Assembly (NCBI GenBank): GCA_041737125.1
Contig: JBGSSJ010000014.1
Span: 68,375 to 132,374, forward strand
Length of the DNA: 64,000 nt
Direction of reading: 5' to 3'
DNA from: Minisyncoccia bacterium
GTDB lineage: Bacteria; Patescibacteriota; Minisyncoccia; Phycocordibacterales; UBA9973
Of this stretch, positions 7,369 to 49,882 are shown in pieces. Position 1 is the stretch's first letter. Each line of letters opens with the position of its first letter. Under the pieces are notes generated by a model that ran no database searches, was not told the DNA's origin, and saw only the letters and a program-made list of their open reading frames with translations. The translations under genes were made by a program, and so were the position numbers.

Positions 7369-8046
7369 ATGATTTATTTCAATAACGTCACAAAGAAATA
7401 TACGGACAGTATGTCACTTGATAATGTGACTATCTCTATATCTGCCGGTGAGTTTGTCGCTATTGTTGGTCACTCTGGTGCAGGGAAGACTACGTTGACG
7501 AAGCTTATCCTCGCTGAAGAGAATCCGACCGAAGGAACTATATTCTTTGAATCTACTGACATCCACAAGCTATCTAGTCGTGATCTGACTAACTTCCGTC
7601 GCAAGGTGGGTGTTGTTTTCCAAGATTTCCGCTTACTTTCGAATAAGACAGCATATGAGAATATAGCATTTGCCATGGAAGCTACGGGCAAAGACGATGA
7701 AGAAATAAGAGAAGACATACCGCATGTACTCGACCTTGTCGACTTATCTCATCGTGCTACACATTTCCCTCATCAACTCTCAGGTGGAGAGAAGCAGCGC
7801 CTCGCTATCGCCCGCGCAATTATTACACAGCCAGAGCTTATCATTGCGGATGAACCTACGGGCAATCTCGACCCAGTGAATGCCCATGAAGTTATAAATA
7901 TTCTAAAGAAGATTAATGATCTAGGTACTACTGTTATACTCACTACTCATAACCGCGCTATTATCGACTCACTGAAGAAGAGGGTAATTACTCTTGATAA
8001 TGGGAAAGTTATTAGAGATGATAAAGACGGCAAGTATGTGATATAA
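7369..8046 (+). CDS. ftsE: cell-division ABC ATPase FtsE
   Basis: Walker [13 protein letters not shown] signature LSGGEKQR, Walker [12 protein letters not shown]; followed by ftsX. Confidence 0.85.
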
Positions 8047-8980: not shown

Positions 8981-10663
8981 ATGAAGAAGACGAAACCAAT
9001 AATTCCAAAGGAAGAAAAACAATGCAAATATATCTTTGTTATCGGTGGAGTCATCTCTGGTGTAGGTAAAGGAGTCGCAGCTTCTTCTATTGCTCGTATT
9101 TTACAAGACAGGGGACAGAAGGTAACTGCCATAAAAGTAGATCCATATATAAACCTTGATGCAGGTACTATGAACCCGACTGAGCACGGCGAAGTCTTTG
9201 TTCTGGATGATGGAGATGAATGCGACCAAGATATGGGTAACTACGAGAGATTTCTAGGTATTAATCTCTCTCGCATAAATTACATGACCACGGGCCGTGT
9301 ATATCAGACTGTTATAGAGAAGGAGCGCAACCTAGAGTATGCGGGTAAGTGTGTAGAAGTTGTGCCTCATATACCGCTCGAAGTAATTCGTCGTATAGAG
9401 CTTGCTCGTGATAATGCAGGCGCTGATGTAGTCGTCATAGAGATAGGGGGTACTGTCGGTGAGTATCAGAATATGCTTTTCCTCGAAGCTGCTCGTATGA
9501 TGAAGATCAAGCACAGAAGAGATGTATTCTTCGTCATGGTGTCCTATCTTCCTATACCTAGTAAAGTAGGAGAAATGAAAACAAAGCCGACTCAGTACGC
9601 TGTGCGCACACTTAATGCTTCAGGAATTCAGCCAGACATTATAATCGCTCGTAGTGTCATGCCACTAGATGATAGGCGCAAAGAGAAGCTCTCAATGTTC
9701 TGTAATCTTCCACCTGAGAATATTATATCTGCGCCCGATGTAGATAGCATATATGACATACCACTGAACTTCGAGAAGGAAGGTCTAGGTGACATGATTT
9801 GTGATGTCGTCGATATGAAATGTGAACCTACAGGCGGGGAAGGCTATAATAAATGGCGCAAATTCGCGAAAGCCACTCACTCTGCGAAAGAGAATTTAAA
9901 TATAGCTATCATTGGTAAGTATTTTAATACTGGTGATTTTACTTTATCTGATTCATATCTATCTGTTATAGAAGCTGTAAAATACTCTGCTTATACCCAA
10001 GGCAGAAAACCAGTCCTCACATGGATATCAGCAGTAGATTACGAGAAAGATCCGAAGAAGCTTAAAGAACTTAGTAAATACGATGGCATAATTGTGCCGG
10101 GTGGGTTCGGTTCACGCGGAGTAGAGGGTCTTATAATGGCTGTATCTTACGCTCGCACAAACAAGATTCCATACTTTGGGCTTTGCTACGGCATGCAACT
10201 TATGGTTATAGAGTATGCTCGTAATGTTCTCAAATACAAAGATGCCAATACACGTGAGATAAATCCGAATGGTGATCACTTGGTTATAGATGTAATGGAA
10301 GACCAGAAAGATAAAATCGAGAATAAGAAGATGGGTGGTACTATGAGACTTGGTGCATATGATGCAGTCCTCAAAAAGGGAAGCATAGCATATAAATCTT
10401 ACGGTAAAGATTTGATATCCGAGCGTCATCGCCACCGCTATGAAGTAAGTAATGTTTATAGGAGTGATATAGAGAAAGCCGGACTCATATTCTCAGGGCT
10501 CTCACCTGATGGCCACTTAGCTGAGATAGCAGAGCTGCCTACATCTGTACATCCATTCTTCCTTGGCACACAATTCCACCCAGAGTTCAAAGCACGGCCT
10601 CTTGATCCACACCCACTTTTCTCTGCCTTTGTGAAAGCTTGTGTAATTAATAAAAAGAAATAG
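8981..10663 (+). CDS. pyrG: CTP synthase
   Basis: N-terminal synthetase motif FVIGGVISGVGKG and C-terminal glutamine amidotransferase motif GLCYGMQ. Confidence 0.9.
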   Translation: MKKTKPIIPKEEKQCKYIFVIGGVISGVGKGVAASSIARILQDRGQKVTAIKVDPYINLDAGTMNPTEHGEVFVLDDGDECDQDMGNYERFLGINLSRINYMTTGRVYQTVIEKERNLEYAGKCVEVVPHIPLEVIRRIELARDNAGADVVVIEIGGTVGEYQNMLFLEAARMMKIKHRRDVFFVMVSYLPIPSKVGEMKTKPTQYAVRTLNASGIQPDIIIARSVMPLDDRRKEKLSMFCNLPPENIISAPDVDSIYDIPLNFEKEGLGDMICDVVDMKCEPTGGEGYNKWRKFAKATHSAKENLNIAIIGKYFNTGDFTLSDSYLSVIEAVKYSAYTQGRKPVLTWISAVDYEKDPKKLKELSKYDGIIVPGGFGSRGVEGLIMAVSYARTNKIPYFGLCYGMQLMVIEYARNVLKYKDANTREINPNGDHLVIDVMEDQKDKIENKKMGGTMRLGAYDAVLKKGSIAYKSYGKDLISERHRHRYEVSNVYRSDIEKAGLIFSGLSPDGHLAEIAELPTSVHPFFLGTQFHPEFKARPLDPHPLFSAFVKACVINKKK

Positions 10664-12117: not shown

Positions 12118-15100
12118 ATGAAGTCTAAATATAACATTTTGTTGGGCCGTAAGCTTTTTTTAACAATAATAACACTATTGCTTTTCGTTCCATCCCTTAC
12201 TCATGCAGCACTCACGGACAACCTCATATCTTTCTGGAACTTAAATGAGAGCAGTGGTACTAGAAATGATGTAATAAGCACAAATCACCTAGCTGAGGTT
12301 GGTGGTGCTATCCCATCTGCAATAGGGGTAATAAATAACGCACCTGCTTTCTCTTCAAGTAAATATCTTTCTATTAACGATAATGCAGAACTCAGTACCG
12401 GTGACATTGATTTTACCGTTGCGGGATGGGTATACCTGGACTCTAAAGCTTCACCACAAGGTATTGTTTCTAAATATGACGGTTCATCAAACAGTGAATT
12501 TATGCTCTACTACGCATCCGGTACTGATAGACTTACCTTTTTAGTAACTTCCAGTGGGTCATCTGCAACTCAAGTGTCAGTTGCTGCTGAGGATCTCGGA
12601 TCTCCTGCGATCAACACATGGTACTACGTTGTGGGGTGGCATGACTCAGTAAATAATACGATTAATATTCAAGTTAATAACGGTGCTGTAAACAGTACCG
12701 CAACGACACTTGGAGTTTTTGATGGAACAGCTCCGTTTCTCATAGGTTCGTATTCTGGAGGGACAAGACCGCTGAGTGGTCGCGTCGACTCAGTAGGATT
12801 ATGGAAGCGAGTCTTAACAACAAATGAAAAAAATGAATTATATGCTAGCGGAGCAGGGTTTGAGCATCCATTTCTTCCTGCTACTGCTCCTGGAGCTCCG
12901 ACAGGCATAACATTTCAACCCAAAGATAATAGTGTTGCGCTACGATGGTTTGCTCCTGACAGTGGGAACAGTGCTATCACAGATTATATTATTCAATATA
13001 AACTAACAGCAAGTGGTTCATGGACAACCTTTAGTGATGGCACTAGTGTTTTGTCATCTACAACGGTTACTGGTCTTACAAATGAAAATAGTTATGATTT
13101 TAGAATCGCCGCTGTGAATAATGTTGGTACAGGTGAATACTCAACCCCAATGACGGGAACTATTCTTGCGACAACTCTCGATGATGATCTTATATCTTTT
13201 TGGAATTTAAATGAGACGAGTGGCGTTCGGTATGATGTGGTAAATTCAAATGATGTATCTCAGGTTGGTGGTACAATCTCATCAACAGTAGGAGTTATAG
13301 GCAATGCTCCCGCATTCTCTTCTGATAAATATCTTTCTATTAATGATAATGCAGAACTCAGTACCGGGAACATTGATTTTACCGTTGCGGGATGGGTGTA
13401 CCTGGACTCTAAAGCTTCACCACAAGGTATTGTTTCTAAATATGACGGAACAACGAACCGTGAATTTATGCTCTACTACGCATCCGGTACCGATAGACTT
13501 ACCTTTTTAGTAACCTCAGGAGGGTCAGTAGCAACACAGGTATTAGCTGCTGCAAATGATCTCGGATCTCCTGCGATCAACACATGGTACTACGTTGTGG
13601 GGTGGCATGACTCAGTAAATAATACGATTAATATTCAAGTTAATAATGGTGCTGTAAACAGTACCGCAACGACACTTGGAGTTTTTGATGGAACAGCTCC
13701 TTTTCGCATAGGTTCGTATTCTGGGACGACAGGACCACTTAATGGTCGCGTCGACTCAGTAGGATTATGGAAGCGAGTCTTAACAACACAGGAACGCACA
13801 GACCTTTATTTTGGTTCTTTAGGTGTTCAATACCCATTCGATCCTGATGCTTCAAATACAATTACTATTATAGGCCCGTTACAATATCAAACATTTCAGA
13901 GAAGTTCAGAAAGTAGCGGCTCAATACCCATCAGTGGTACCTATAGCGGAACCCCTACTACTATTGAAGCTAGTTGGAACGGGGGTGCGTATCAAGTAAT
14001 CGATAATTCATTGAGCAACGGGTTCTTTTCAGGTACACTTACAAGTCAAACCCCAGGACAGGGAACACTCACTGTGAGATTTACAAATGATACTGCAGTG
14101 ACTGCTACACAAACATACGTTGGACTCGGAGACGTGTATGTTGTTGCTGGTCAGTCAAATGCGATGGGACGTGGAGCATTCGCTCAACTATACACACACC
14201 CTACTCTAAAGGCATCAATTTTCAATCAAAATGATCAATGGCTAGAAGGGAATGATCCTACAGATATTGACACCAACGATGGATCTCCATGGCCACTTCT
14301 CTCAACATATATTATGGATGATCAATCCGTGCCAGTCGCATTTATTACTACCGCCACAGGGGGCACAGGTCTTGTTAGTCCAAACGACTGGGAAAAAGGT
14401 GGTGGAGGTGGAGAATATGAAAGAATGATTACACAAATTACAGATTCGGGCGTCAATAGCGTCAAAGCAGTTCTCTGGCACCAAGGAGAACAAGATGTAA
14501 ACAGCGGTGTATCACGGGCAACATATAATGCCGCAATAGATACACTTGCAGGTCATATGGCAGCTGATATTGTTGGTGCGCCTAAATTGGTGTTAGCACA
14601 AATAGGATACAAGACAACAAGTGGTGCAGTTCGTGACAATGTTGACGCAGTCAGATTAGCACAGTCAGACGCGTGGGATGATAATCCAGGAGTTGTCGCA
14701 GGCCCTATTCTCTATGACATTGGACCTCTCAGTGATGGTGTACACTTTAGTACAAACGAAGAAATAGAGGCTTTAGCAGAGCGATGGTGGGCGTCTCTAA
14801 ATAAAGAGTACTATGGTGGGACTGATGGGCGTGGTCCAATACTTACTGCCGCTGAACACAACGAAGCAAAATCAGAGATCACACTTACATTTTCAGATGA
14901 TTCTTTGCCGATTACCCCGTCAACAGGCTTAAGCGGGTTTAGGGTTGAGGAAGATACAGTGAGTGTTCCTATTAGTAGTGTCACACGAATTGCTAATAAT
15001 AAATTGAGAATAGTGCTTACCTCTGCAGCAACAGGAGCTTTGACTGTATCGCTCGGGAGTTTTAATGACGGTGCTGGTGTGACGATTCCTAAAGACTCTA

Positions 15101-15864
15101 GCGCATACGCACTTCCTGCTGAGATTTTTGTTGACTATCCAACAACACTTGCTGTTGATACCGGAGCGCCAACTATAGATTCTGTAACTTCAAATAAAAC
15201 TACAGGAACATATGGCGTAGGAGAAGTCATTGATATTGATGTGACGTTTTCTGAAGCCGTGACATCTGCGTCTGTAACTGTTACCTTAGAAACAGGGGAT
15301 ATTGATCGCACTTGTACGTTTTCAATATCTAATTCTTCTACGGGTTCGTGTGACTATACTGTTCAGGTAGGGGACACAAGTGCTGTGCTCACTGTAGCTA
15401 GTATCTCAGGGTCTATTGTTGATGAGGCAAATAATGCAATGACAGATTTTGAACCAACTATCAATCTCTTTAATAACCCCTTACTCGTGATTGATACGAC
15501 TACCTCATTTCGTTCTGCATATGGTTCGTATTCTAAAACATCTCCATTCTTTATCCAGAATCAAGTTATATCAAATTCTCCATTACAAAATATACAGAAA
15601 TATATATTTACAAGAAATTTTAAAATTATAATACCTAGAATAAAAGGGGAGGATGTGAAGGTGTTACAAGAATTCTTAAACTTTAAAGGCTATACTATAC
15701 CTCAGACTGCATATGAGAAAGCAAATAATATTCCATCCTCTGATGGCGTGTTTGGTCCTTTGACTAAGAAAGCCGTTATTTCCTTCCAGCTGGCCAATGG
15801 CCTAGTGCCAGATGGTATCGTAGGACCGAAGACTTTGGCGAAAATAAAGGAGTTAGCTCATTGA
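12118..15864 (+). CDS. large secreted multidomain protein: signal peptide, two LamG/ConA-like lectin repeats, FN3 domain, SGNH/sialate-O-acetylesterase-like (DUF303-like) domain, Ig-like domains, C-terminal peptidoglycan-binding (PG_binding_1-like) domain
   Basis: N-terminal hydrophobic leader; FN3-like APGAPTGITFQP...YDFRIAAVNNVGTGEYS; esterase-like GLGDVYVVAGQSNAMGRG and VLWHQGEQD; C-terminal LQEFLNFKGY...VFGPLTKKAVISFQ...PDGIVGPKTL. Confidence 0.8.
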   Translation: MKSKYNILLGRKLFLTIITLLLFVPSLTHAALTDNLISFWNLNESSGTRNDVISTNHLAEVGGAIPSAIGVINNAPAFSSSKYLSINDNAELSTGDIDFTVAGWVYLDSKASPQGIVSKYDGSSNSEFMLYYASGTDRLTFLVTSSGSSATQVSVAAEDLGSPAINTWYYVVGWHDSVNNTINIQVNNGAVNSTATTLGVFDGTAPFLIGSYSGGTRPLSGRVDSVGLWKRVLTTNEKNELYASGAGFEHPFLPATAPGAPTGITFQPKDNSVALRWFAPDSGNSAITDYIIQYKLTASGSWTTFSDGTSVLSSTTVTGLTNENSYDFRIAAVNNVGTGEYSTPMTGTILATTLDDDLISFWNLNETSGVRYDVVNSNDVSQVGGTISSTVGVIGNAPAFSSDKYLSINDNAELSTGNIDFTVAGWVYLDSKASPQGIVSKYDGTTNREFMLYYASGTDRLTFLVTSGGSVATQVLAAANDLGSPAINTWYYVVGWHDSVNNTINIQVNNGAVNSTATTLGVFDGTAPFRIGSYSGTTGPLNGRVDSVGLWKRVLTTQERTDLYFGSLGVQYPFDPDASNTITIIGPLQYQTFQRSSESSGSIPISGTYSGTPTTIEASWNGGAYQVIDNSLSNGFFSGTLTSQTPGQGTLTVRFTNDTAVTATQTYVGLGDVYVVAGQSNAMGRGAFAQLYTHPTLKASIFNQNDQWLEGNDPTDIDTNDGSPWPLLSTYIMDDQSVPVAFITTATGGTGLVSPNDWEKGGGGGEYERMITQITDSGVNSVKAVLWHQGEQDVNSGVSRATYNAAIDTLAGHMAADIVGAPKLVLAQIGYKTTSGAVRDNVDAVRLAQSDAWDDNPGVVAGPILYDIGPLSDGVHFSTNEEIEALAERWWASLNKEYYGGTDGRGPILTAAEHNEAKSEITLTFSDDSLPITPSTGLSGFRVEEDTVSVPISSVTRIANNKLRIVLTSAATGALTVSLGSFNDGAGVTIPKDSSAYALPAEIFVDYPTTLAVDTGAPTIDSVTSNKTTGTYGVGEVIDIDVTFSEAVTSASVTVTLETGDIDRTCTFSISNSSTGSCDYTVQVGDTSAVLTVASISGSIVDEANNAMTDFEPTINLFNNPLLVIDTTTSFRSAYGSYSKTSPFFIQNQVISNSPLQNIQKYIFTRNFKIIIPRIKGEDVKVLQEFLNFKGYTIPQTAYEKANNIPSSDGVFGPLTKKAVISFQLANGLVPDGIVGPKTLAKIKELAH
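12220..13800 (+). repeat. intragenic tandem duplication (about 620-bp unit at roughly 12220-12840 and 13177-13797) encoding the two lectin-like repeats
   Basis: Long stretches are nearly identical at nucleotide level between the two units (for example around 12380-12830 versus 13337-13790). Confidence 0.8.
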
Positions 15865-36700: not shown

Positions 36701-37618
36701 TTATTCGTTTATCTTAAAAGAGACAATCGCAAGCAGTAGCTCAAAGTCATTCATTGAAATAATAAATGGAGCTTCTTTTCCTTTCTTGAATAGATACAAA
36801 AATCCATCTCTAATATCCAAAGAAGATATTTTATCGTAAGGAATACTAAGATGTTTATTAAGACCAATGTACCCAAGATTATCTGTGGTTAGATATAGAG
36901 TACCTGCATCATCAGTCATCATCACATTCACTTTTTGTGGATTAATTTTGATGTTACCAACTCGATACCTTAATCCCTTGGCGATCTTTATAGATGCAGA
37001 AAAGCCACTATAGTTGTAACTCTTCGTTATTGATTTGTTTTTAACAATAAATGCCTTATTTACACAGTGCAGTTTTTCACCTGCCTTTAAATTGACATTC
37101 AGATTTGGAACATCAATGGTCGGTAGCTTTCCCTCGTCTATTAAATAAAGCGTATGGTATTTATTAAAATCACTTTGATTATACGCAAGATTATCTGTAG
37201 AGAGATTCAGATCAGAATAAATTTTAACAAGCTCTTTTCTCTCGGCTTCTGTAATTCTTGAGTCGTCCGTAATTTTATCAAAGAAAGTTTTGAATCCTAT
37301 GAGATTATATTTTTCGACATCCTTGTCAGACAAATTATGATCTTTTTTAATTCCCTCTAAAACTACCTTGTCGTCTTCTGACAGGTTTCCATCAATCAGT
37401 AATTCTTTGATTTTTTCTGAATATAAACTTAACGCTTTTCTTTTAGGTGATCTAAATACTTTTGTAAATAGAAAATAAACTGCACCTATGGCGATACCTA
37501 TGTAGAGGAGATCTTTAAATAAACTGAAATTGACGATGATTATCGTGAGCACTATAAGAGTAAGTATTATCTGCTTGGCAAGAGATAAATCCTTAAACTT
37601 TTGTAAAAGATTTTTCAT
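36701..37618 (-). CDS. membrane-anchored hypothetical protein
   Basis: Two N-terminal TM helices and an unknown C-terminal domain. Confidence 0.4.
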   Translation of the reverse strand: MKNLLQKFKDLSLAKQIILTLIVLTIIIVNFSLFKDLLYIGIAIGAVYFLFTKVFRSPKRKALSLYSEKIKELLIDGNLSEDDKVVLEGIKKDHNLSDKDVEKYNLIGFKTFFDKITDDSRITEAERKELVKIYSDLNLSTDNLAYNQSDFNKYHTLYLIDEGKLPTIDVPNLNVNLKAGEKLHCVNKAFIVKNKSITKSYNYSGFSASIKIAKGLRYRVGNIKINPQKVNVMMTDDAGTLYLTTDNLGYIGLNKHLSIPYDKISSLDIRDGFLYLFKKGKEAPFIISMNDFELLLAIVSFKINE

Positions 37619-37977
37619 TAACTTTGGACGGTTTTTCTAATAATGAACTGGGCAGGTAGCAAAAAACTCCTAGCCAGATCCGACATACCCCGTGAGGTAT
37701 GCCCACATCAGTTTCCCGATGTGACCGTCCAAAGTAGACCCCTGACTAGGAGATCTTTGCTTTGGACGGATTTGCAACCATATCCTTTGGCGAACCAAAG
37801 GGGTTAGGTCGACTGATATTCAGTTGTAAATGAATAATAACATTTTCAGAGTTATTACTCTAGATTGATTGTATCGCTGATACGTGGTTTTGCTAAGGAT
37901 AGTATCGCGAGTATGCGACGTATTTCTTAGTCTGCATAGTCTTAGCAAAATAGATGATCTGCGTCATTAATTAATAT
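37619..37977. promoter_or_regulatory. palindrome-rich non-coding region upstream of the second serine recombinase (candidate attachment site and promoter)
   Basis: CTTTGGACGG at 37621 and 37758 with its inverse CCGTCCAAAG at 37725; CTCCTAG / CTAGGAG inverted pair; TTGCTAAG..CTTAGCAA inverted pair. Confidence 0.35.
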
Positions 37978-39300
37978 ATGGAAACGCAGTACATAAGTAA
38001 CCTTGGTGTTAAGACGGAGGTAATTCAAGCGAAAGTAAGATATGTCTTATACGCCAGAAAATCAACTGAATCTGATGAGAAGCAAGCCCTTTCGATTGAG
38101 TCTCAAGTAAAGGAGATGTTAACTATCGCAGATCGAGACGGTTTAACAGTCGTCGATATTAGGCGTGAATCTCATTCTGCAAAAGAGTCAGGGCAACGAC
38201 CAGTATTTAAAGAATTACTTGAGGATATTCGGCGAGGTAGATATACAGGAATTCTGACCTGGGCACCTGATCGTCTTTCTCGAAATGCCGGTGATCTTGG
38301 TTCAGTTGTTGACCTTATGGACGAAAACAAGCTTATAGAGATTAGGACATATGGACAACACTTTAAGAATTCACCAAACGAGAAGTTTCTTTTAATGATT
38401 TTATGCTCACAAGCAAAACTCGAGAACGATAATAAAAGTATCAATGTAAAACGAGGATTACGGACAAGATGTGAAATGGGGCTTCGCCCAGGTCCTGCAA
38501 TATTTGGATATTTAAACGAAAAGCATGTAGATAAAAAATGTGAAGTTATTATCGACACAGAGCGAGCACCTGTAGTTAAAAAGATATTTGAAAAAGTAGC
38601 ATATGAAAAATGGAGTGGGAGAAAAATATATCACTGGTTAAAGTTTGAGTTAAATCTAAAAACTCGTAACGGAAACAAAGGACTTACCCTCAGCAACATC
38701 TATATGATTTTAGAAAACCCCTTTTACTACGGGGTTTTTGAATATCCCAAGAAAAGTGGAAATTTTTATAAAGGTAGACACGAACCAATCATCACAAAAG
38801 AACTGTTTGATACTGTGCAAGAACAAGTTAAATCACAAACTCTTCGTACTCAAGAGCCAAAAGAATTCGCTTTTATTAAAATGATGAATTGTGGTCTTTG
38901 TGGATCAGGAATTACCGCAGAAGAAAAATTTAAGAAACTTAAAGACGGCAGCATAAACAGACATGTGTATTATGGCTGTGCCAAATCTAAGGATAGATTT
39001 TGTAAGTGTGGGTATATTAATGAGAATGATTTGATTCAACAATTTGAAAAACTAATTGATCAAATTGATATCAATGAAATTGGAATGAAAGAAAAAATTA
39101 AATACGAAGTTGAGCGAATTAAAAGATTTAACCATTCTGTATTAAATATAAAACAACAAATACAGATAAAAGATGTGGATGTAAGGGACTACGCCAAGTT
39201 TATTTTGAAAGATAGCTCGATTGAAGACAAGCGAGAATTACTCATGTGCTTTAAAAACAACATTTTGTTAGATAATAAAACTATTAGGTTGAGTTATTAA
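37978..39300 (+). CDS. large serine recombinase (paralog of 1948..3591)
   Basis: YVLYARKSTESDEKQALSIESQ...WAPDRLSRN catalytic domain and a Cys cluster CGLCGS...CAKSKDRFCKCG. Confidence 0.85.
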   Translation: METQYISNLGVKTEVIQAKVRYVLYARKSTESDEKQALSIESQVKEMLTIADRDGLTVVDIRRESHSAKESGQRPVFKELLEDIRRGRYTGILTWAPDRLSRNAGDLGSVVDLMDENKLIEIRTYGQHFKNSPNEKFLLMILCSQAKLENDNKSINVKRGLRTRCEMGLRPGPAIFGYLNEKHVDKKCEVIIDTERAPVVKKIFEKVAYEKWSGRKIYHWLKFELNLKTRNGNKGLTLSNIYMILENPFYYGVFEYPKKSGNFYKGRHEPIITKELFDTVQEQVKSQTLRTQEPKEFAFIKMMNCGLCGSGITAEEKFKKLKDGSINRHVYYGCAKSKDRFCKCGYINENDLIQQFEKLIDQIDINEIGMKEKIKYEVERIKRFNHSVLNIKQQIQIKDVDVRDYAKFILKDSSIEDKRELLMCFKNNILLDNKTIRLSY

Positions 39301-39379
39301 CAGTGTATTATCATAAAGCTTAGACTTTCGGTTTTATTTCGGATATAATTGAATTGTAGCAAATTAGATTTCTAAACAA

Positions 39380-40957
39380 ATGACCACACTAACCAAAAAA
39401 CAAAAAGAAGTATTTGATTATATAAGCACATATATCGCTGAAAATGGTATTTCTCCAACCATTGATCAGATTCGTAAAAAATTAAAGCTGAAGGCAGTCT
39501 CTACTGTTCATGAACATATCGCTTCCCTAAGAGAAAAAGGATACCTTTCAAAGTCAGATAGTACAGATCGAGGGATGACACCAAAAAAAGAAATCAAATC
39601 GGTAATTGAGATTCCTATAGTTGGTAAAATTGCTGCTGGTCAACCAATTGAGGCATTAGAAGATCATCAGGCTACTATTTCAATAATAAATCCCTCTATT
39701 AAGAGTGCTAAGGATCATTATGCTTTACGAGTAGTTGGTGACAGTATGATCGATGAAGGTATTTTTAATGGAGATATTGTGGTTATTAAAAAACAATCCG
39801 TAGCAGAGAATGGACAAACTGTTGTCGCGATTATTGACGATAACCAAGCAACCCTCAAAAAATTATATAAGGAGGATAAAAAAATAAGGCTACAGCCTGG
39901 AAATCCTGACATGAAGCCTTTGTTTAGAGTAGATGTTGAGATCAGAGGTGTTGTTGTTCAAGTTATAAGAAATATCGATAATGAAGCAGAAGTGTTACCT
40001 ACAAAGAAACAGAAGCATGGTTTTAGAACAATAGACTTATTTGCTGGAGTAGGAGGCATCCGAAAAGGATTTGAAAATGCAGGTTTTAAAACAGTCTTTG
40101 CAAATGATTTTGATGCCCCTTGTAAGCAGACATATGATTTGAATTTTAAAGATTCTAAATTAATAATTGAAGACATTAGAAAAATTGGTATCAATGATTT
40201 ACCAGAGTTTGACTTTATACTCGGAGGTTTTCCTTGTCAGGCATTTTCTATAGCAGGCTATCGCAAAGGCTTTGATGATCCTAAAAATAGAGGTAACCTG
40301 TTTTTTGATATTGCGAAGATTATTGAAGCAAGAAAACCAGCAGGCTTCATGTTGGAAAATGTTAAAAATCTAAAAAGCCATGATGATGGAAATACTTTTA
40401 GAATTATCGAAGAGACCCTCAGAGATCTTGGTTACCATGTAAAATCCAAAGTACTAAACACTATGGAATATGGAAATGTTCCCCAAAATCGTGAGAGAAT
40501 TTATATTGTAGGATTTAGAAATAAAGATTACTTTGATAGGTTTAACTTTCCAGAACCAGTAAAACTCACAAAAAAAATAACAGATCTCTTAGAGAAAAAT
40601 GTTCCTGAAAAATACTATTACAATGGCAAACCTCTTTTTGATAAATTAAAGAAAGACGTAAAAGAAGAAGGTAAGGTATACCAATGGCGAAGGCAATATG
40701 TTCGCGAAAATAAAAGTGGGGTTTGCCCTACTCTCACAGCAAATATGGGAATGGGTGGACACAATGTACCAATTATCAAAGATAAGAAAGGTATCAGAAA
40801 ACTTACGCCATTAGAGTGCTTTAGAATACAAGGATTTCCTGCAACTTATATTTTACCCAAGATCGCAGACTCTTCTTTGTATAAACAAGCTGGCAATTCA
40901 GTTAGTGTCCCTGTTATTGAAGCCGTTGCTAAAAAAATGATGGAGGCAATGAAGTAG
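39380..40957 (+). CDS. fusion of a full-length LexA repressor (wHTH plus S24 autopeptidase) to a cytosine-5 DNA methyltransferase
   Basis: LexA part: LTKKQKEVFDYI, cleavage site KIAAGQP, VGDSM Ser, TLKKL Lys. MTase part: motif I DLFAGVGG, motif IV GFPCQAFS (PCQ), ENV, C-terminal QAGNSVSVPV. Confidence 0.85.
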   Translation: MTTLTKKQKEVFDYISTYIAENGISPTIDQIRKKLKLKAVSTVHEHIASLREKGYLSKSDSTDRGMTPKKEIKSVIEIPIVGKIAAGQPIEALEDHQATISIINPSIKSAKDHYALRVVGDSMIDEGIFNGDIVVIKKQSVAENGQTVVAIIDDNQATLKKLYKEDKKIRLQPGNPDMKPLFRVDVEIRGVVVQVIRNIDNEAEVLPTKKQKHGFRTIDLFAGVGGIRKGFENAGFKTVFANDFDAPCKQTYDLNFKDSKLIIEDIRKIGINDLPEFDFILGGFPCQAFSIAGYRKGFDDPKNRGNLFFDIAKIIEARKPAGFMLENVKNLKSHDDGNTFRIIEETLRDLGYHVKSKVLNTMEYGNVPQNRERIYIVGFRNKDYFDRFNFPEPVKLTKKITDLLEKNVPEKYYYNGKPLFDKLKKDVKEEGKVYQWRRQYVRENKSGVCPTLTANMGMGGHNVPIIKDKKGIRKLTPLECFRIQGFPATYILPKIADSSLYKQAGNSVSVPVIEAVAKKMMEAMK

Positions 40958-40959
40958 GG

Positions 40960-41523
40960 TTACCAAACCTTTACATCAGTCGCGATTGGCTTAAGGTCAT
41001 ATTTTGCAATCACATCTTTTTTGATACAAAATCTAGGTCGTCTCTTTTCTTCTTGTTGCTGTTTTAGCGTTTGAAGTTTATTGACCGGGTTATCATAGAT
41101 AAAATTATTAGGTATTTTATATACCTTAAAAGTTCCGTCGACTCTGCCGTCAGCATAAAAATCTAAAAAATATAAATCGTCCCACTTAGATTTTGGACCA
41201 AAAGAAGTAAGATCATTTTCTACACTACAAGCTTTGATTTGTTCTGCTCTCTTTGTTTTAGTATTAAACGTATCAAATGATGTATTAGAAAGTTTTTTAG
41301 CACTTATTAATCTTGTGGATCCAGACCATAAACAAAAAGCAACCTCAGATAATCCTTCAGGAAAATTTGGTTCACGCGATTTATAATCACGCATTCCCAT
41401 CTTTAATCCTTTCCATAGATCAAATAGTGTTTTCCATTTTTTTCCATCAGAAGAATCAAACTCCATTAGATCAACGGTGCAGTCTTCATCAAAAATAGTA
41501 GTGTTTACTTTAACTAAGTTCAT
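40960..41523 (-). CDS. putative type II restriction endonuclease partner of the C5-MTase (small, possibly Bsp6I-like)
   Basis: Convergent with only a 3-bp gap to the C5-MTase gene; 187 aa with acidic/Lys clusters compatible with a PD-(D/E)xK enzyme. The call rests on context only. Confidence 0.35.
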   Translation of the reverse strand: MNLVKVNTTIFDEDCTVDLMEFDSSDGKKWKTLFDLWKGLKMGMRDYKSREPNFPEGLSEVAFCLWSGSTRLISAKKLSNTSFDTFNTKTKRAEQIKACSVENDLTSFGPKSKWDDLYFLDFYADGRVDGTFKVYKIPNNFIYDNPVNKLQTLKQQQEEKRRPRFCIKKDVIAKYDLKPIATDVKVW

Positions 41524-41628
41524 GATGTATTTATACTATATTTTTATCAATTTCTCAAACAAAAACACCTTTTTAATTAAAGGTGTTTTTGTTTTAAAAC
41601 TAGCTATCTTTGAGCTAGCTCTTGTTTG

Positions 41629-41728
41629 CTGCCAGACCTGGACTCGAACCAAGGAAGTGTCCTACCCGCCCGCCATTGCAAGCATGAGCTTGCTCAGGCG
41701 TTGCGGGCGGGCCATTAGACGATCACTG
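41629..41728 (-). pseudogene. degenerate tRNA-Gln paralog: T-arm and acceptor 3' strand intact, anticodon arm deleted, 47-nt GC-rich palindrome inserted in the D-loop, 5' acceptor mutated
   Basis: Aligns base-for-base with tRNA-Gln at 41743..41813 except for the missing anticodon arm and the inserted CCCGCCCGCC...GCGGGCGGG hairpin (41665..41711). Confidence 0.45.
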
Positions 41729-41742
41729 ATTTCTGCACAAAG

Positions 41743-41813
41743 CTGCCAGACCTGGACTCGAACCAAGATAACCTCCTCCAGAGGGAGGTGTCCTACCATT
41801 AGACGATCTGGCA
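41743..41813 (-). tRNA. tRNA-Gln (anticodon CTG)
   Basis: Acceptor TGCCAGA/TCTGGCA, D-arm GTCT-AATGGTA-GGAC, anticodon arm CCTCC-CTCTGGA-GGAGG, T-arm CTTGG-TTCGAGT-CCAGG. Confidence 0.8.
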
Positions 41814-41828
41814 GCTTTGTGCATAAAT

Positions 41829-42065
41829 TTATATTCTCTCTTTTAAAAATCTTCTCCCAAAACCTGTTTTAAAATACTTTTCTCTTTTCAATGCTTTTTC
41901 TTTACTATTACAAGCTTCATAATATAAAATTTCTAAAGGTCTTCTATTCTCAGTAGCTGGTACTTTGCCTGCAGAATGAAGATTAAATCTATTCTTCAGG
42001 TCTTCGGTATAACCTACATATAAATCACCATCCTTTAAACTTTTTAATACATATGTGTAATACAT
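41829..42065 (-). CDS. GIY-YIG nuclease superfamily small protein (YhbQ/UPF0213-like)
   Basis: YTYVLKS...GDLYVGYTEDLKNRFNLHSAG GIY-YIG motif and C-terminal REKYFKTGFGRRFL. Confidence 0.75.
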   Translation of the reverse strand: MYYTYVLKSLKDGDLYVGYTEDLKNRFNLHSAGKVPATENRRPLEILYYEACNSKEKALKREKYFKTGFGRRFLKERI

Positions 42066-42073
42066 AAATTAAA

Positions 42074-42136
42074 GTCCTACCCGCCCGCCATCGCAAGTAT
42101 GAGCTTGCTCAGGCGTTGCGGGCGGGCTATTAGACG
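42074..42136. repeat. second copy of the GC-rich ~47-nt palindromic element with tRNA D-arm-like flanks (gtcctac...attagacga)
   Basis: 42079..42125 matches 41665..41711 with 3 substitutions; the flanks gtcctac and c(t/c)attagacga are conserved. Confidence 0.55.
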
Positions 42137-42162
42137 AGCCGGCAATGCGATCGGCAAATACT

Positions 42163-42213
42163 GCTCAATGTCGATATATTACCACAAAAAAGCTAAAAAA
42201 CAATTAAAAATAT
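42163..42213. repeat. ~50-bp direct repeat, copy 1 (CTCAATGTCGATATATTACCACAAAA...TAAAAAACAATTAAAAATA); copy 2 at 43586..43636
   Basis: Two near-identical copies bracket the 42264..43523 gene. Confidence 0.7.
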
Positions 42214-42263
42214 GCTCTTGAATCAATTCCTAGAATAACTATTCATACTAACTTACAGTTAGG

Positions 42264-43523
42264 TTATTCTTGTTTAGGTTCGTAAATTACAGTACCTTTT
42301 GCTATCTTATTATTTTTTTCATCTTCTTCATCTACGGTATTAAATAAAATGTTAAATTCTAAATTATCACCAGTAGAATTTTTTTGAATATCCACAGACT
42401 TTGGCTCTCCCTCTGTTGGCTTATCAGATGCAATCACTTTTACATTATAAACCTTGGACATTTCCTCTGCGAGTCCACCCTCAACACCTGTAAGACAACT
42501 CGATAATACTAGTTCCGCATTATTTTCAAATAATTCTTTGACTCTCTGTATACCTTTACCACTTAAATCTTTTTGCTGGAGCATGCGGTTATCACCCTCT
42601 CTATCGCCAAATCCTACAACATCTGTATTGCCATGAACATGCATATACATGAACTTTATTTTTTGATTATATTTATCTCGAAGATATAGTAGTCGTTTTG
42701 CTAAATCAATTTTTCCATTTGACTCAATAATTCTTATCATAAAGGAATTTTCTTCCACTTTCTCTCTGATACCTTCTGATTGATTCGATTGGGAGAAGGA
42801 ACCATTCCAATCCATAACTGCCTGAAAAAATAAACCATAAGGACCTTTCGCATCTCTCTCCTCATACTGTTTTTTAAGTTCATGTATTGTATATCTCCCA
42901 AAACCACGAATACCAAAATTATCAAATAAATACTTTACAGATCCTTTTTCAAAATTTTGAAGAAATCTTATTTTTCTAAATGTTTCATATATGTACCAGT
43001 CAGCTATTTCGTCATCCTTAACTGTAAGCCAGCTCTGAATAAGATCTTCTGCTTCGTGTTCAGAAAAACCAAACTGTTTTAATATGTAATCAGCCAAATA
43101 CTCTTTATACTCTAAATCTTTTTCTTTTGAAGTATATAATTCTCTCTTTCTTAAAATATCGCGAGCTAGTGTATGATCAATATCATTTGATATCATATAC
43201 AATCTTGCAGTTATTTCTTTATTTGAATCAGTAAGCAAATCAAGTTTATCAATAAGTTCAAAATAAAACTCGTATTCTCGGGATATACTAAAATGTAATT
43301 CTCCTGTTTCTTCTCTTTCTATATATTTTCGAATTTCACTTTCAACTACCGGTTGAATTTTTATAAAATTTTCTTTTATTTCATTAAACTTTCTGGTTCC
43401 AGGTGAAGATTTTAAAATATCTTTTGCTAATACCTCTAGTTTAGACTTTATATCTTCAGGAGTTTTCATCTCTTCAAGATCTATGCTTCCTGTTTTTATT
43501 ATATTAGGGTTAGGTTCTTTCAT
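42264..43523 (-). CDS. hypothetical 419-aa protein bracketed by 50-bp direct repeats; possible His/Cys-dyad hydrolase in its C-terminal half
   Basis: Long ORF; HVHGNTDVVGFGD and LVLSSCLTGVEGG segments about 45 residues apart (weak caspase-like His...Cys spacing); no firm motif. Confidence 0.45.
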   Translation of the reverse strand: MKEPNPNIIKTGSIDLEEMKTPEDIKSKLEVLAKDILKSSPGTRKFNEIKENFIKIQPVVESEIRKYIEREETGELHFSISREYEFYFELIDKLDLLTDSNKEITARLYMISNDIDHTLARDILRKRELYTSKEKDLEYKEYLADYILKQFGFSEHEAEDLIQSWLTVKDDEIADWYIYETFRKIRFLQNFEKGSVKYLFDNFGIRGFGRYTIHELKKQYEERDAKGPYGLFFQAVMDWNGSFSQSNQSEGIREKVEENSFMIRIIESNGKIDLAKRLLYLRDKYNQKIKFMYMHVHGNTDVVGFGDREGDNRMLQQKDLSGKGIQRVKELFENNAELVLSSCLTGVEGGLAEEMSKVYNVKVIASDKPTEGEPKSVDIQKNSTGDNLEFNILFNTVDEEDEKNNKIAKGTVIYEPKQE

Positions 43524-43585
43524 GTCTCTTTACTTATAGATTTATTACTAAAGTTTTAATATGATATATTGTTTCTCACAAGAAT

Positions 43586-43636
43586 CCTCAATGTCGATAT
43601 ATTACCACAAAATTAGTAAAAAACAATTTAAAAATA
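43586..43636. repeat. ~50-bp direct repeat, copy 2; also carries promoter-like elements for the CDF transporter gene
   Basis: Matches 42163..42213; followed by an extended -10 TGCTATAAT at 43641..43649. Confidence 0.7.
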
Positions 43637-43654
43637 AAAGGAAAATTTGCTATA

Positions 43655-44668
43655 ATGGGTGACATGGCAACAAAAACTCATGGGAAGAAATCAGTTATAG
43701 CAGCATTGCTCGGGAATACATTCGTCACTATCATCAAAGGAACAATATTCTTCATTACAGGCTCGGCTAGTATGTTCGCGGAGAGCGTGCACTCATTGGC
43801 AGACACTCTCAACCAATCACTCCTCCTCATCGGCCTTAACCGTTCGAAAAGACCAGCTGACCATATACGAGGTTATGGCTATGGTATCGAGAGGTTCTTC
43901 TGGTCACTCATATCTGCTTGCGGAATATTATTCATCGGTGCAGGGGTGACTATATACCACTCGATAGATTCACTGATGCATGTAGATAAAGAATTACATC
44001 CTTTCAGTTACCTCAGTATGATAGTGCTATTCGTCGCTCTTATTATCGAAGGTATTACTCTATGGCTTGCAATTAAAGAATTGAAAAAGGGTAGAAAGTT
44101 TTCGAAAGAAATATTCCGAGATGCAGATCCTGTAATACTTGCTATAGTATATGAAGACGGTGCCGCAGTGCTCGGTGTGCTCATAGCTTTGCTTGCACAA
44201 TGGCTCGCTTACCTTACTGGCAATGTGGTGTATGATGCAATAGGAGGAATAGTCGTAGGACTTATACTTGGCTTCCTCGCAGTAATACTGATAATTAAGA
44301 ACCATCAGTATATAATAGGTAAGGCCTTGGATGAGGAGATAACAGAGGAGATAGTAGAATTCCTAGGCCAAGATCCTTGTATAGAACGAATACTCGAATT
44401 CAAATCAGTAGCAGTCGATGTCGGTAAGTATAGAATATTCGCAACTGTTGAGTGGAACGGCTCGCCCCTCTATGAAGAGATATACGAAGCAGGGGATTTG
44501 CAAGAAGAGTGGATAAATATTAAAGACGATTTTGGTGAATTTGCTAAACTAATGTTCAAGACGACAGATCGCATACCACGCCTCGTCGGTAGCCACATAG
44601 ATGAGATAGAGAAAGAGATAGTGAATAAATTCCCACAAGTAGCTTATGTAGATATAGAAATTAATTAA
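43655..44668 (+). CDS. cation diffusion facilitator (CDF) family divalent-cation efflux transporter
   Basis: SASMFAESVHSLADTLNQ signature; six TM helices plus a cytoplasmic C-terminal domain. Confidence 0.8.
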   Translation: MGDMATKTHGKKSVIAALLGNTFVTIIKGTIFFITGSASMFAESVHSLADTLNQSLLLIGLNRSKRPADHIRGYGYGIERFFWSLISACGILFIGAGVTIYHSIDSLMHVDKELHPFSYLSMIVLFVALIIEGITLWLAIKELKKGRKFSKEIFRDADPVILAIVYEDGAAVLGVLIALLAQWLAYLTGNVVYDAIGGIVVGLILGFLAVILIIKNHQYIIGKALDEEITEEIVEFLGQDPCIERILEFKSVAVDVGKYRIFATVEWNGSPLYEEIYEAGDLQEEWINIKDDFGEFAKLMFKTTDRIPRLVGSHIDEIEKEIVNKFPQVAYVDIEIN

Positions 44669-47830: not shown

Positions 47831-49882
47831 TTATTTATTACCTTTTGCTAAGCCATCTTGGTACATTTTTGTATCGGCTGATCTACTGTAACGAGGTCCT
47901 ACGTGTTCTGGTAGTTTTTCAAGACCTGTAATACTAATACTAGTATTATTTTTTAATTTTTTTTCATAAGTATTTACTAACGCATATTCCTGAGTTGCTA
48001 TCTCTTCTTTTAATAGATCTATATTTTTGTTTTTATTATTACCAAGGGTGTTAATAATTCCTTGTATCTTTATTTTATTTTCTCTATAATTTTTGTTTAG
48101 GGCTGTCATTGCTTTTTGTAATGCTGTTTTGTCTTCTTGATATCTTGTATTTAGTTTTTGAATTTCCATAATTAAGACATCTCTATTTAAACTCTCTTCT
48201 CCTGTTTGCACTTCATCAGGTGTGCTAATTTTTTTAGCAGAAATTTTTTCTTTTAAAGATTCTTCAATTACCTTATATTCTTTATCTAATTTTTCAATCT
48301 TTTGTTCCAAATTTTCCTTATTTATTTTGTATGATGAATCGTATGCTGCAATTTTTTCATTTAGATTTTTTTCTATATTTTTCTCATCTTCAATATAACT
48401 TTTTAATTCAGATATATATTTTTTTGTATCCTCTACATTTGCTGTTAATCTCGTTATGTTTTCCTTAAGCTTTTCTTGATAATAAGTATCAAAGATTGTT
48501 CTTATATCTTCAAGAGATAATACTTTGATACCTTCTTTTGTTCTCATTCTTATTTCAAAATTTATATTTTGTTCTCTTGCTATTGATTCTAAACGAGTAA
48601 GATTATCATTTGTTACATTCTGCAATTCTTCATCAGTTTGCCATATCATTAAGTTGTTTTCATTTGATTTGAAGCTAAATTCGTTCTTCTCGGACAAAAC
48701 TTTAATCGCAATATCAATAGCGTATTCTTTACCATCTCTAGAAGATTTTAGTTCAAGAATCTTCTGTGCTGCTTCTTTAGAATTTTTCACCGTAAATCTA
48801 CCTTCAATTGTAGAAGCAAATCCTATTATTTCGAAAGGCTTTTCTTGGTTTAAACTCTCTATCTCTTTTGCAACAGCCTGTCTGTCATTATTCATAGAAC
48901 TACTGAGGTCCAAAAGCAATTTTACATTCTGGGCTTTCTCTAAGCTTGTAGAATCTTTTACTTCCGGAGTTTTCTGGTTGGGGATAGCAAGCTCGAGCGT
49001 GACAAAGCGCATGTTCTTATAAGCTTCTAAAAGCTTGGATTCATTACCTGGTTTATTTAATTCTGCCCATTGTTCAGTGCTATAATTTAGTTGATGATAA
49101 TCAATTACTCCACCAGGTGGTATATCTACTCCTATGTTTTGCAATTTCTCTTTAACACTTTTTAGTTTTTCTTGAGTTAAATTACTATTTTCTATATTAT
49201 AACTTTTTATTATTCCCATAGCCTCCTTCGCGCGAGCTTCTGCTAGTCCAACGTTTCCATTCTCGTATGAATTAGTCGGTCTTGGGTCACAACTTACACG
49301 CAAAGTAACTTCTTTTTTTAAGAATTCATCTACATTACTCATATCTAAATTATCTGTATATTGGGATATAAGTCTAAGCATTTCTTTTGCATCCTCGGGT
49401 GAGATGTTTGCTTTATCTGTCTCGAAATAATTTGCTAGTTTTATCTGTACTCTGTCTGCTGTTTTAACAACCTCAGCTTTTAATTTATTTATATCATCCC
49501 TGTTTTCTACTTTATTTTTCTCTTTACCTGTAAAAGTCTCGTCGGCTGTGGCTCCTTTAGCAAGGTTGGGGAATAGACTGGAAATTAATACACTAGCAGC
49601 AACTGACATGTTAGTAAATTTTTTAAAAAGTTTTGCCACTTTGCCAGTCTCTGATTTTACACCTGGAGTTTTTGCTTTTTCAATATTGGTATTTACTATA
49701 ACAGGCTCATCAGGAGGATATTTTTCAATTACGCCTTGTTTTGCTATAGCAATTGCTTGTTCTTTTTCTAATTTACTTAAAACAGCCTCAGGTTTTGCTC
49801 CAGATTCATTTTTTTTAGGAGATTCTTTGTTTCTAGCAACTTTATTTTCTCCATGCTCTAAATTTTTTTTCTTTTCTATCAT
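47831..49882 (-). CDS. large coiled-coil protein with a vWA-like domain, hypothetical
   Basis: DxSxS-like MIDAS motif LLLDLSSSM and an extensive Lys/Glu-rich coiled-coil C-terminal half. Confidence 0.45.
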   Translation of the reverse strand: MIEKKKNLEHGENKVARNKESPKKNESGAKPEAVLSKLEKEQAIAIAKQGVIEKYPPDEPVIVNTNIEKAKTPGVKSETGKVAKLFKKFTNMSVAASVLISSLFPNLAKGATADETFTGKEKNKVENRDDINKLKAEVVKTADRVQIKLANYFETDKANISPEDAKEMLRLISQYTDNLDMSNVDEFLKKEVTLRVSCDPRPTNSYENGNVGLAEARAKEAMGIIKSYNIENSNLTQEKLKSVKEKLQNIGVDIPPGGVIDYHQLNYSTEQWAELNKPGNESKLLEAYKNMRFVTLELAIPNQKTPEVKDSTSLEKAQNVKLLLDLSSSMNNDRQAVAKEIESLNQEKPFEIIGFASTIEGRFTVKNSKEAAQKILELKSSRDGKEYAIDIAIKVLSEKNEFSFKSNENNLMIWQTDEELQNVTNDNLTRLESIAREQNINFEIRMRTKEGIKVLSLEDIRTIFDTYYQEKLKENITRLTANVEDTKKYISELKSYIEDEKNIEKNLNEKIAAYDSSYKINKENLEQKIEKLDKEYKVIEESLKEKISAKKISTPDEVQTGEESLNRDVLIMEIQKLNTRYQEDKTALQKAMTALNKNYRENKIKIQGIINTLGNNKNKNIDLLKEEIATQEYALVNTYEKKLKNNTSISITGLEKLPEHVGPRYSRSADTKMYQDGLAKGNK

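Follow-up and report, generated by a model that had tools for sequence, protein, structure and literature searches.

How a single gene came to lie between two copies of a direct repeat, next to a tRNA-Gln(CTG) cluster and a gene for a cation diffusion facilitator (CDF), and what that gene encodes, are the questions raised by a stretch of 64,000 nt (the window, in what follows) from a Minisyncoccia bacterium (Patescibacteriota, UBA9973), corresponding to forward positions 68,375-132,374 of contig JBGSSJ010000014.1 in assembly GCA_041737125.1. The genome is that of a Paceibacteria-like member of the Patescibacteria, with a GC content of 38%. The gene codes for a protein of 419 residues and spans positions 42264-43523 on the minus strand. 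The answer proposed here, which as a whole we hold to be rather probable, is that a foreign gene was inserted in the promoter region of tRNA-Gln, that this promoter was duplicated around it, and that its product is a caspase-like protease.

A repeat search identified a family of two copies, copy 1 at 42157-42210 and copy 2 at 43580-43633, each of 54 nt, with 85% identity and a spacing of 1423 nt. They share an exact 26-nt core, CTCAATGTCGATATATTACCACAAAA, located at 42164-42189 and 43587-43612 and nowhere else in the window when up to 3 mismatches were allowed, whereas its count in 100 shuffled sequences was zero. The first-pass annotation of this DNA, made from the sequence alone, had described a single 419-aa gene bracketed by direct repeats, with spacers of about 50 and about 65 bp, and this description held: the gene is the only long open reading frame (ORF) between the copies, and the gap from copy 1 to its stop codon is 53 nt and that from its start codon to copy 2 is 56 nt (63 nt to the exact core). 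The concern, voiced in the same annotation, that the repeat might recur at many unrelated loci was not borne out in the window, where a 17-mer search tolerating 3 mismatches found no third copy in the 64 kb; a scan of JGI metagenomes with the 19-mer TCGATATATTACCACAAAA returned 8 matches, all of them in contexts unrelated to this locus.

The nature of the repeat had been sought in the CDF promoter, and on this point the earlier proposal had to be amended. Both copies were compared by short-word BLAST with 80 CDF loci, which had been fetched with the CDF protein from species-representative genomes (CDF 65-78% identical, all of them Patescibacteria/Paceibacteria-type metagenome-assembled genomes, MAGs); here and below, L-numbers are labels of loci from related genomes or of homolog-bearing contigs. 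The repeat was found in four related genomes. Three matches showed 90-93% identity over about 40 nt (L067:11235-11276, L025:15465-15504 and L048:14735-14773), and in the fourth (L010:4551-4569) 19 of 19 nt matched and the motif abutted the 5′ end of an oppositely running tRNA-Gln(CTG). The motif also stands upstream of tRNA-Gln(CTG) in L067 (by about 30 nt) and in L025 (by about 95 nt), and L048 has a 17-nt core copy abutting the tRNA and a 39-nt copy about 650 nt off, upstream of a LOG-like gene. Read on the tRNA strand, the motif takes the form CAATTGTTTTTTA-(4 variable nt)-TTTTGTGGTAATATAT and contains TTGTTT followed, after 16 nt, by the extended -10 TGGTAATAT, an arrangement present in both window copies and conserved upstream of tRNA-Gln in all four genomes. 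Since the two blocks are conserved in the alignment (A3) while the 4-nt spacer between them varies, the motif would represent a promoter footprint, and its consensus and its conservation both point to promoter function on the minus strand. In copy 1, the putative -35 (TTGTTT) lies at 42203-42198 and the -10 at 42184-42176, ahead of a tRNA-Gln 5′ remnant, a GIY-YIG gene and the intact tRNA-Gln, and its promoter-like character rests on the sequence and on the homology to tRNA-Gln upstream regions; in copy 2, which precedes the 419-aa gene, the -10 occupies 43607-43599 (minus), 76 nt upstream of the ATG. The repeat is thus best described, to judge from these sequences, as chiefly a tRNA-Gln promoter within a back-to-back promoter region, and not as the CDF promoter, with the extended -10 placed on the opposite strand.

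The CDF gene itself (43664-44668, plus strand; Pfam Cation_efflux, E 1.8e-29) starts at ATG 43664, as called in a public assembly; an alternative start at 43655 falls within the -10. The exact product is on record as a 334-aa form, and the 337-aa form has no record. The first-pass annotation had placed an extended -10 for this gene after copy 2, and such an element was indeed located there: TGCTATAAT, at 43648-43656 (plus), which lies outside the repeat, matches at 10 of 12 positions with the TG present, and ranked above every other promoter-like site of the region in a consensus scan. It follows copy 2 only, with no counterpart after copy 1, and the sole part of the CDF promoter found within copy 2 is a -35-like TTTAAA at 43627-43632 (plus). 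The -10 hexamer TATAAT ends at 43656, 7 nt before the ATG, so the CDF mRNA is probably leaderless; the same spacing between -10 and start was observed for the genes divergent from tRNA-Gln in L010 and L076.

As for the relationship between the two copies, both carry a 12-nt extension downstream of the -10, ATCGACATTGAG, that is missing in the relatives. On this basis, they appear to have arisen from each other in this lineage, and the sequences do not suggest a resident promoter meeting an imported one. The mismatches between them are concentrated in the promoter spacer, and this suggests that both were kept functional.

That the gene between the copies came from elsewhere is indicated, in the first place, by its composition, which is foreign: the GC content at third codon positions (GC3) is 0.198 in the 419-aa gene, 0.391 in the CDF gene, 0.45-0.46 in the next two genes and 0.37-0.51 in most of the core genes sampled. 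A second line of evidence is comparative. No relative of the gene was found within 8 kb of CDF in the 80 loci; its homologs occupy different, unrelated neighborhoods in every other genome examined; and among related loci the family is absent beside CDF or tRNA-Gln, with the exception of L087, in which 2.5 kb separate it from tRNA-Gln. In many relatives, by comparison, tRNA-Gln(CTG) and CDF are at most a few kb apart. In L063, tRNA-Gln (minus) and CDF (plus) diverge directly from each other across about 170 nt that hold no gene, and L076 shows the same layout with one small ORF between the two. It is therefore likely that the 419-aa gene was inserted between tRNA-Gln and CDF. The idea of an insertion with duplication of the CDF promoter, put forward in the first-pass annotation, survives in its first half (on account of the GC3 values, the 80 loci and L063), but what was duplicated would be chiefly the putative tRNA-Gln promoter.

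A reading without any insertion, in which the repeat is merely a strong type of promoter that happens to precede two unrelated minus-strand units, the gene itself having long been resident, would find some comfort in the coincidence of the conserved blocks with -35 and -10 elements and in a partial look-alike, ATATTACCACAAAATAATAAAAAAACAAT, before an unrelated gene in L048 (3840-3868). However, the 26-nt exact match, which includes 12 nt past the -10, exceeds what a promoter consensus needs, and the lack of a third copy in the 64 kb, the foreign composition of the gene and its absence beside CDF or tRNA-Gln in related loci other than L087 all speak for an insertion, so that we consider an old resident gene very improbable.

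A number of observations weigh against insertion with promoter duplication. The exact empty site was not found: the L063 layout is of the unoccupied type that the earlier annotation had asked to be sought in relatives, but its intergenic region is too diverged for a single near-identical repeat copy to be seen in it, and no such copy stands beside CDF in any of the 80 GTDB loci. The one near-identical contig is occupied; it comes from the other assembly with the same CDF protein, measures 5.1 kb, differs from the window at its tip only and has the same layout, and an exact-product look-up of CDF (334-aa form) found no strain variant of the locus. Gene order around CDF varies greatly among relatives, which makes absence elsewhere weak evidence when taken alone. 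The bracketed segment holds the 419-aa ORF alone and neither recombinase, transposase nor integrase, nor terminal inverted repeats, the nearest recombinase being located 2.9 kb outside it, and with 54 nt the duplicated stretch exceeds the length of any ordinary target-site duplication. A simple consensus promoter scan did not call the minus-strand promoter, which went unlisted because its -35 matches at 3 of 6 positions. Lastly, GC3 is low (0.17-0.30) in all genes from 36701 to 43523, and since the whole region of 36.7-43.6 kb shares this property, the 419-aa gene may have arrived within a larger island.

With these reservations, the insertion could be pictured as follows. The background in this clade would be a tRNA-Gln(CTG) close to CDF, with back-to-back promoters between the tRNA and its divergent gene, and 1.37 kb of foreign DNA with the single 419-aa gene would have been placed inside this divergent promoter region. 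On either side of the insert one would then find about 55 nt of this region, reaching from its A/T-rich part around the -35 to some 12-19 nt beyond the -10. Because of this duplication of the promoter around the insert, copy 1 would still drive the tRNA cluster and copy 2 would drive the incoming gene, and CDF would keep its own -10 beyond copy 2. A direction and a mechanism of insertion can only be inferred from such a product, the most economical route probably being a small circular or linear intermediate that recombined at the promoter segment, by a Campbell-type single crossover or in a site-specific manner, and not by transposition. Other routes were considered and set aside. Nothing supports a target-site duplication of the transposon type, for which 54 nt is too long, and an integron-like attC reading of the 3′ spacer was dropped, as it has two short palindromes only and no integrase. 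The flanks of the homologs in other genomes, both upstream and downstream, have no ends in common with the window, so the repeat is not part of a traveling cassette, and a scan of IMG/VR contigs with the family alignment yielded no relative, which leaves a phage origin unsupported.

What does the incoming gene encode? An AlphaFold2 model built from an alignment of 36 sequences (pLDDT 87.2, pTM 0.86) predicts two domains: an all-helical N-terminal domain comprising residues 22-221 (42861-43460, minus) and a C-terminal alpha/beta domain comprising residues 229-414 (42282-42839, minus), with the caspase-like fold of clan CD. Comparison of the predicted fold with known structures gave, at lower scores, TPR-CHAT, GPI (glycosylphosphatidylinositol) transamidase, MALT1, metacaspases, toxin cysteine protease domains (CPDs), Raptor and separase. 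Independently of this, the Foldseek matches at the top were mostly caspases (probability 0.9-1.0), together with two low-probability cannabinoid-receptor matches. Two features of clan CD are present in the model, namely an alpha/beta/alpha sandwich with a caspase-like central sheet and a conserved His, in a His-Gly pair, at the end of one strand with a Cys after the next. The putative catalytic residues are His297 (HVHGNTD; codon at 42633-42635, minus) and Cys343 (SSCLTG; codon at 42495-42497, minus). H297-G298 closes the predicted strand 289-295, S342-C343 follows strand 332-341, and both pairs are invariant in 36 of the 36 aligned sequences. Across 133 distant representatives the His, the Cys and, in addition, a Glu (E267) show 100% conservation, and the 'SCxTG' motif is conserved to at least 90%. 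The first-pass annotation had pointed to this His...Cys pair, about 45 residues apart (46, as it turned out), and had offered a caspase-type dyad as a weak guess that would fall if no protease-like fold were predicted. The predicted fold, which matches clan CD proteases, and the invariant dyad now support that guess, although no named family could be attached to the protein by sequence.

This last circumstance is an argument against a protease, since sequence searches of Pfam, NCBIfam, PADLOC and the PDB link the protein to no protease family. No Pfam family, those of the clan (Peptidase_C14, CHAT, DUF4347, Peptidase_C11/C13/C25/C80) included, matched the window protein at E<=0.01; profiles A1 and A2 gave no sequence match between the protease domain and PDB chains; PADLOC gave no match and PHROGs only noise. 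A weak match of the N-terminal region to Legionella WipA (E 0.006, profile vs PDB) was set aside, as it looks like coiled-coil bias. The protein nevertheless has company. About 45 close homologs, 52-76% identical, were retrieved; their names are all uninformative, and the single record to give an organism belongs to a Patescibacteria MAG. When 1.84 billion cluster representatives (50%-identity clusters) were searched with a profile, 1,548 relatives emerged at E<=0.001, 1,122 of them at E<=1e-10, and most of these are about 500 aa long and align mainly over the C-terminal domain. Ten distant relatives that were sampled had no Pfam domain (E<=0.1) and no name, the relatives drew no assignment from PADLOC or PHROGs, and a search with the C-domain alignment recovered fragments of the same close family only. 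Judging from sequence and model together, we regard this as a new and sizeable sequence family within a known fold class.

It appears probable that the 419-aa protein has peptidase activity. It would most likely be a cytoplasmic, two-domain, regulated endopeptidase of clan CD, acting as an effector or toxin or as a stress- or defense-linked protease, and its helical N-terminal domain would probably be regulatory, controlling access, or substrate-binding. The contexts of the homologs were inspected for hints of a role. No conserved partner gene was found across the neighborhoods examined. In the window the gene neighbors an island with restriction-modification, recombinase and GIY-YIG genes. 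In L004 the homolog lies in a block with Mrr, NERD, AAA_15/21, S24, IMS and GIY-YIG, and photolyase genes lie near the homolog in L005 and L087. A promoter-like palindrome, ATAGCAC-N5-GTGCTAT, was noticed directly upstream of the homolog in L087 (about 5930-5990); the same element occurs in L005 (9320-9360 and 9725-9747), downstream of the homolog and before two other genes, and it may be the operator of a stress or DNA-damage regulon.

A further context is that of the closest well-assembled homolog, which is 73% identical (L001, another Patescibacteria contig). There, the gene and a small helix-turn-helix gene (70 aa) are enclosed by perfect inverted repeats of about 230 nt (7431-7657 and 9276-9505), adjoined by a large serine recombinase of 506 aa that is 35% identical to the one in the window (37978-39300, plus; Pfam). 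The sequence suggests that this segment may be invertible, and the inverted repeats recur in two independent short contigs from other samples, both of which end inside the repeats. This raises the question of whether the direct repeats in the window are the sites of its own serine recombinase, 3 kb away, with a 1.4-kb circle being excised and re-inserted as an on/off or copy-number switch, in which case the duplication would be part of a working mechanism and not a scar. The L001 layout, with its inverted repeats beside a recombinase and their recurrence in the two short contigs, would be in keeping with such a switch, as would a comparison between L048 and L025 (about 93% identical; 13990-14780 vs 15170-15510), in which the tRNA-Gln segment has opposite orientations and is bounded on both sides by copies of the promoter motif. 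On the other hand, the repeat core lacks the dyad symmetry typical of serine-recombinase sites, the copies are only 85% identical, five other homolog loci have neither recombinase nor flanking repeats, and the only other assembly of the strain has the same occupied form. Moreover, a conserved promoter is enough to account for the whole of the repeat. We therefore judge a switch at this locus to be unlikely and prefer to see in the duplication the trace of an insertion in the tRNA-Gln promoter.

The place where this insertion would have occurred has a complex history of its own. The intact tRNA-Gln(CTG) (41742-41813, minus) was recognized by ARAGORN and by the Rfam tRNA model (58 bits). It is accompanied by a gene for a 78-aa protein consisting of a GIY-YIG nuclease domain only (41829-42065, minus; Pfam GIY-YIG, E 5.6e-16) and by a tRNA-Gln-like 5′ fragment (42074-42144, minus), which on the evidence of sequence and repeat comprises acceptor and D-arm with a 47-nt GC-rich hairpin inserted. 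If copy 1 is the promoter that its sequence suggests, this fragment is the first element transcribed from it. A second pair of repeats (41659-41722 and 42074-42137, 64 nt, 95% identical) brackets the GIY-YIG gene and the intact tRNA-Gln, each of its members being a tRNA D-arm interrupted by the 47-nt hairpin, which occurs in only these two places of the window. In the two tRNA-Gln-like fragments (41628-41722 and 42074-42144, minus), the hairpin, CCCGCCCGC...GCGGGCGGG, sits in the D-loop, and the 3′ fragment (41628-41722) has no anticodon arm. An Rfam scan of 41400-43700 placed tRNA-Gln alone above threshold and assigned no family to these two hairpin-bearing fragments. Within 41729-41828 (minus), the intact tRNA-Gln is preceded by GCACAAAGC and followed by the complementary GCTTTGTGC; their pairing lengthens the acceptor stem to about 19 bp (fold z-score -6.8 vs shuffles), and the extended stem could be a processing or recombination structure. 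Relatives tell a similar story: in addition to the inversion between L048 and L025, L048 has the tRNA 3′ end duplicated around a 235-nt insert, which contains a tandem repeat, and L063 has a tRNA-Gln 3′ fragment beside the intact gene. In this clade, the tRNA-Gln locus is thus demonstrably a hot spot of recombination.

Between 37978 and 41523, on the 3′ side of tRNA-Gln and with GC3 values of 0.23-0.30, the serine recombinase is followed by a LexA/S24-C5 methyltransferase fusion (39380-40957, plus; Pfam) and a Bsp6I-like restriction endonuclease (40960-41523, minus; Pfam). The fusion joins a LexA DNA-binding domain, an S24 autopeptidase domain and a C-5 cytosine methyltransferase and adjoins the Bsp6I-like gene. 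This points to a restriction-modification system in which the methylase might undergo LexA-like cleavage or regulation in response to DNA damage. Further away, 3 kb downstream of CDF, a lysine-rich ORF of 683 aa with coiled-coil-like repeats (47831-49882, minus; GC3 0.205) is a second compositionally foreign gene.

The 419-aa gene thus stands at the edge of a composite island at an often-rearranged locus, and it could be argued that the whole low-GC3 block (about 36.7-43.6 kb), comprising a 305-aa ORF, the recombinase, the LexA-methylase, the restriction enzyme, the tRNA pieces, the GIY-YIG gene and the 419-aa gene, grew through successive integrations at tRNA-Gln. In that case the duplicated promoter would be a by-product of one of them, for instance of an event in which an element-borne tRNA-Gln, together with its promoter, took the place of the resident one. 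Such a history would agree with the uniformly low GC3 over 36701-43523, the tRNA-Gln fragments on both sides of the intact tRNA, the restriction-modification, recombinase and GIY-YIG genes and the defense- or SOS-like block around the homolog in L004. Against it, the repeat brackets exactly one gene, with spacers of only 53 and 56 nt; the copies are each other's closest relatives by virtue of the 12-nt extension, which fits a local duplication better; and no island-end repeats were found near 36.7 kb. This alternative seems to us possible but doubtful, and a separate insertion of the 419-aa gene, with duplication of the tRNA-Gln promoter, is retained as the preferred reading.

What these observations mean has to be seen against the fact that Patescibacteria depend on host cells and that most of their proteins have no assigned function. 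A likely enzymatic class and a His/Cys dyad can now be attached to a sizeable family that has no Pfam, NCBIfam or PADLOC model, and this family constitutes a concrete target for work on host attack, phage defense or self-regulation in these bacteria. The locus, besides marking tRNA-Gln as a site of recurrent recombination, provides a clear natural example of how an incoming gene may gain signals for its expression when a tRNA promoter already in place is duplicated. The acquisition of a gene in this manner at a tRNA hot spot is ordinary, though neat, and does not overturn current ideas. A bolder proposal, to which we give little credence, would make the 419-aa protein the founding described member of a large clan CD caspase-like family with helical N-terminal domains (about 1,550 representatives), carried as single-gene cassettes that are shuffled in host-dependent bacteria of small genome and placed under switchable control. 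If true, it would imply that episymbiotic bacteria possess such a protease as a phase-variable effector or for self-destruction, with direct repeats in the present case and inverted repeats with a recombinase in L001.

How does the 419-aa protein compare with known systems? A type VI secretion system (T6SS) is not known in Patescibacteria, and the ORFs examined around the 419-aa gene included none that was noted as a T6SS gene. A structural counterpart comes from such a system: Tce1 (PA0256, a DUF4347 protein; PDB 9qpe) and Tce2 are Hcp3-loaded T6SS effectors of Pseudomonas aeruginosa, recently described as putative cysteine proteases in which the His/Cys pair can be aligned to the protease domain of TcdB, and Tce2 is toxic to yeast in a Cys-dependent manner (PMC13323088; for PA0256 as a DUF4347 protein, PMC8262886). 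The structure-based identity between Tce1 and the 419-aa protein is 18%, the latter has no Pfam DUF4347 match, and the N-terminal domain is a beta-sandwich in Tce1 but a helical domain of 200 residues in the 419-aa protein. The CHAT proteases (PF12770), which include SAVED-CHAT of defense of the CBASS (cyclic oligonucleotide-based antiphage signaling system) type and TPR-CHAT/Csx29 of type III-E CRISPR, differ from the 419-aa protein in that the latter matches neither Pfam CHAT nor PADLOC models, has no SAVED sensor domain and no CRISPR or cyclase partner, and possesses a protease domain much smaller than typical CHAT domains. With the C14 caspases and metacaspases, the C25 gingipains, the C11 clostripain, the C13 legumain and the C80 toxin CPDs, no sequence relationship was found even by profiles.

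The arrangement of the locus, in turn, invites comparison with the islands found at tRNA genes between att-core repeats. Differences are apparent. The part repeated here is the tRNA promoter and leader and not the 3′ part of the tRNA, the repeats enclose one gene only and no integrase, and the neighboring recombinase is of the serine type; serine recombinases normally leave only 2 bp of identity. The likeness, for its part, lies in an insert flanked by direct repeats with an exact 26-nt core, at a tRNA locus that is also furnished with tRNA fragments, a recombinase and restriction-modification genes.

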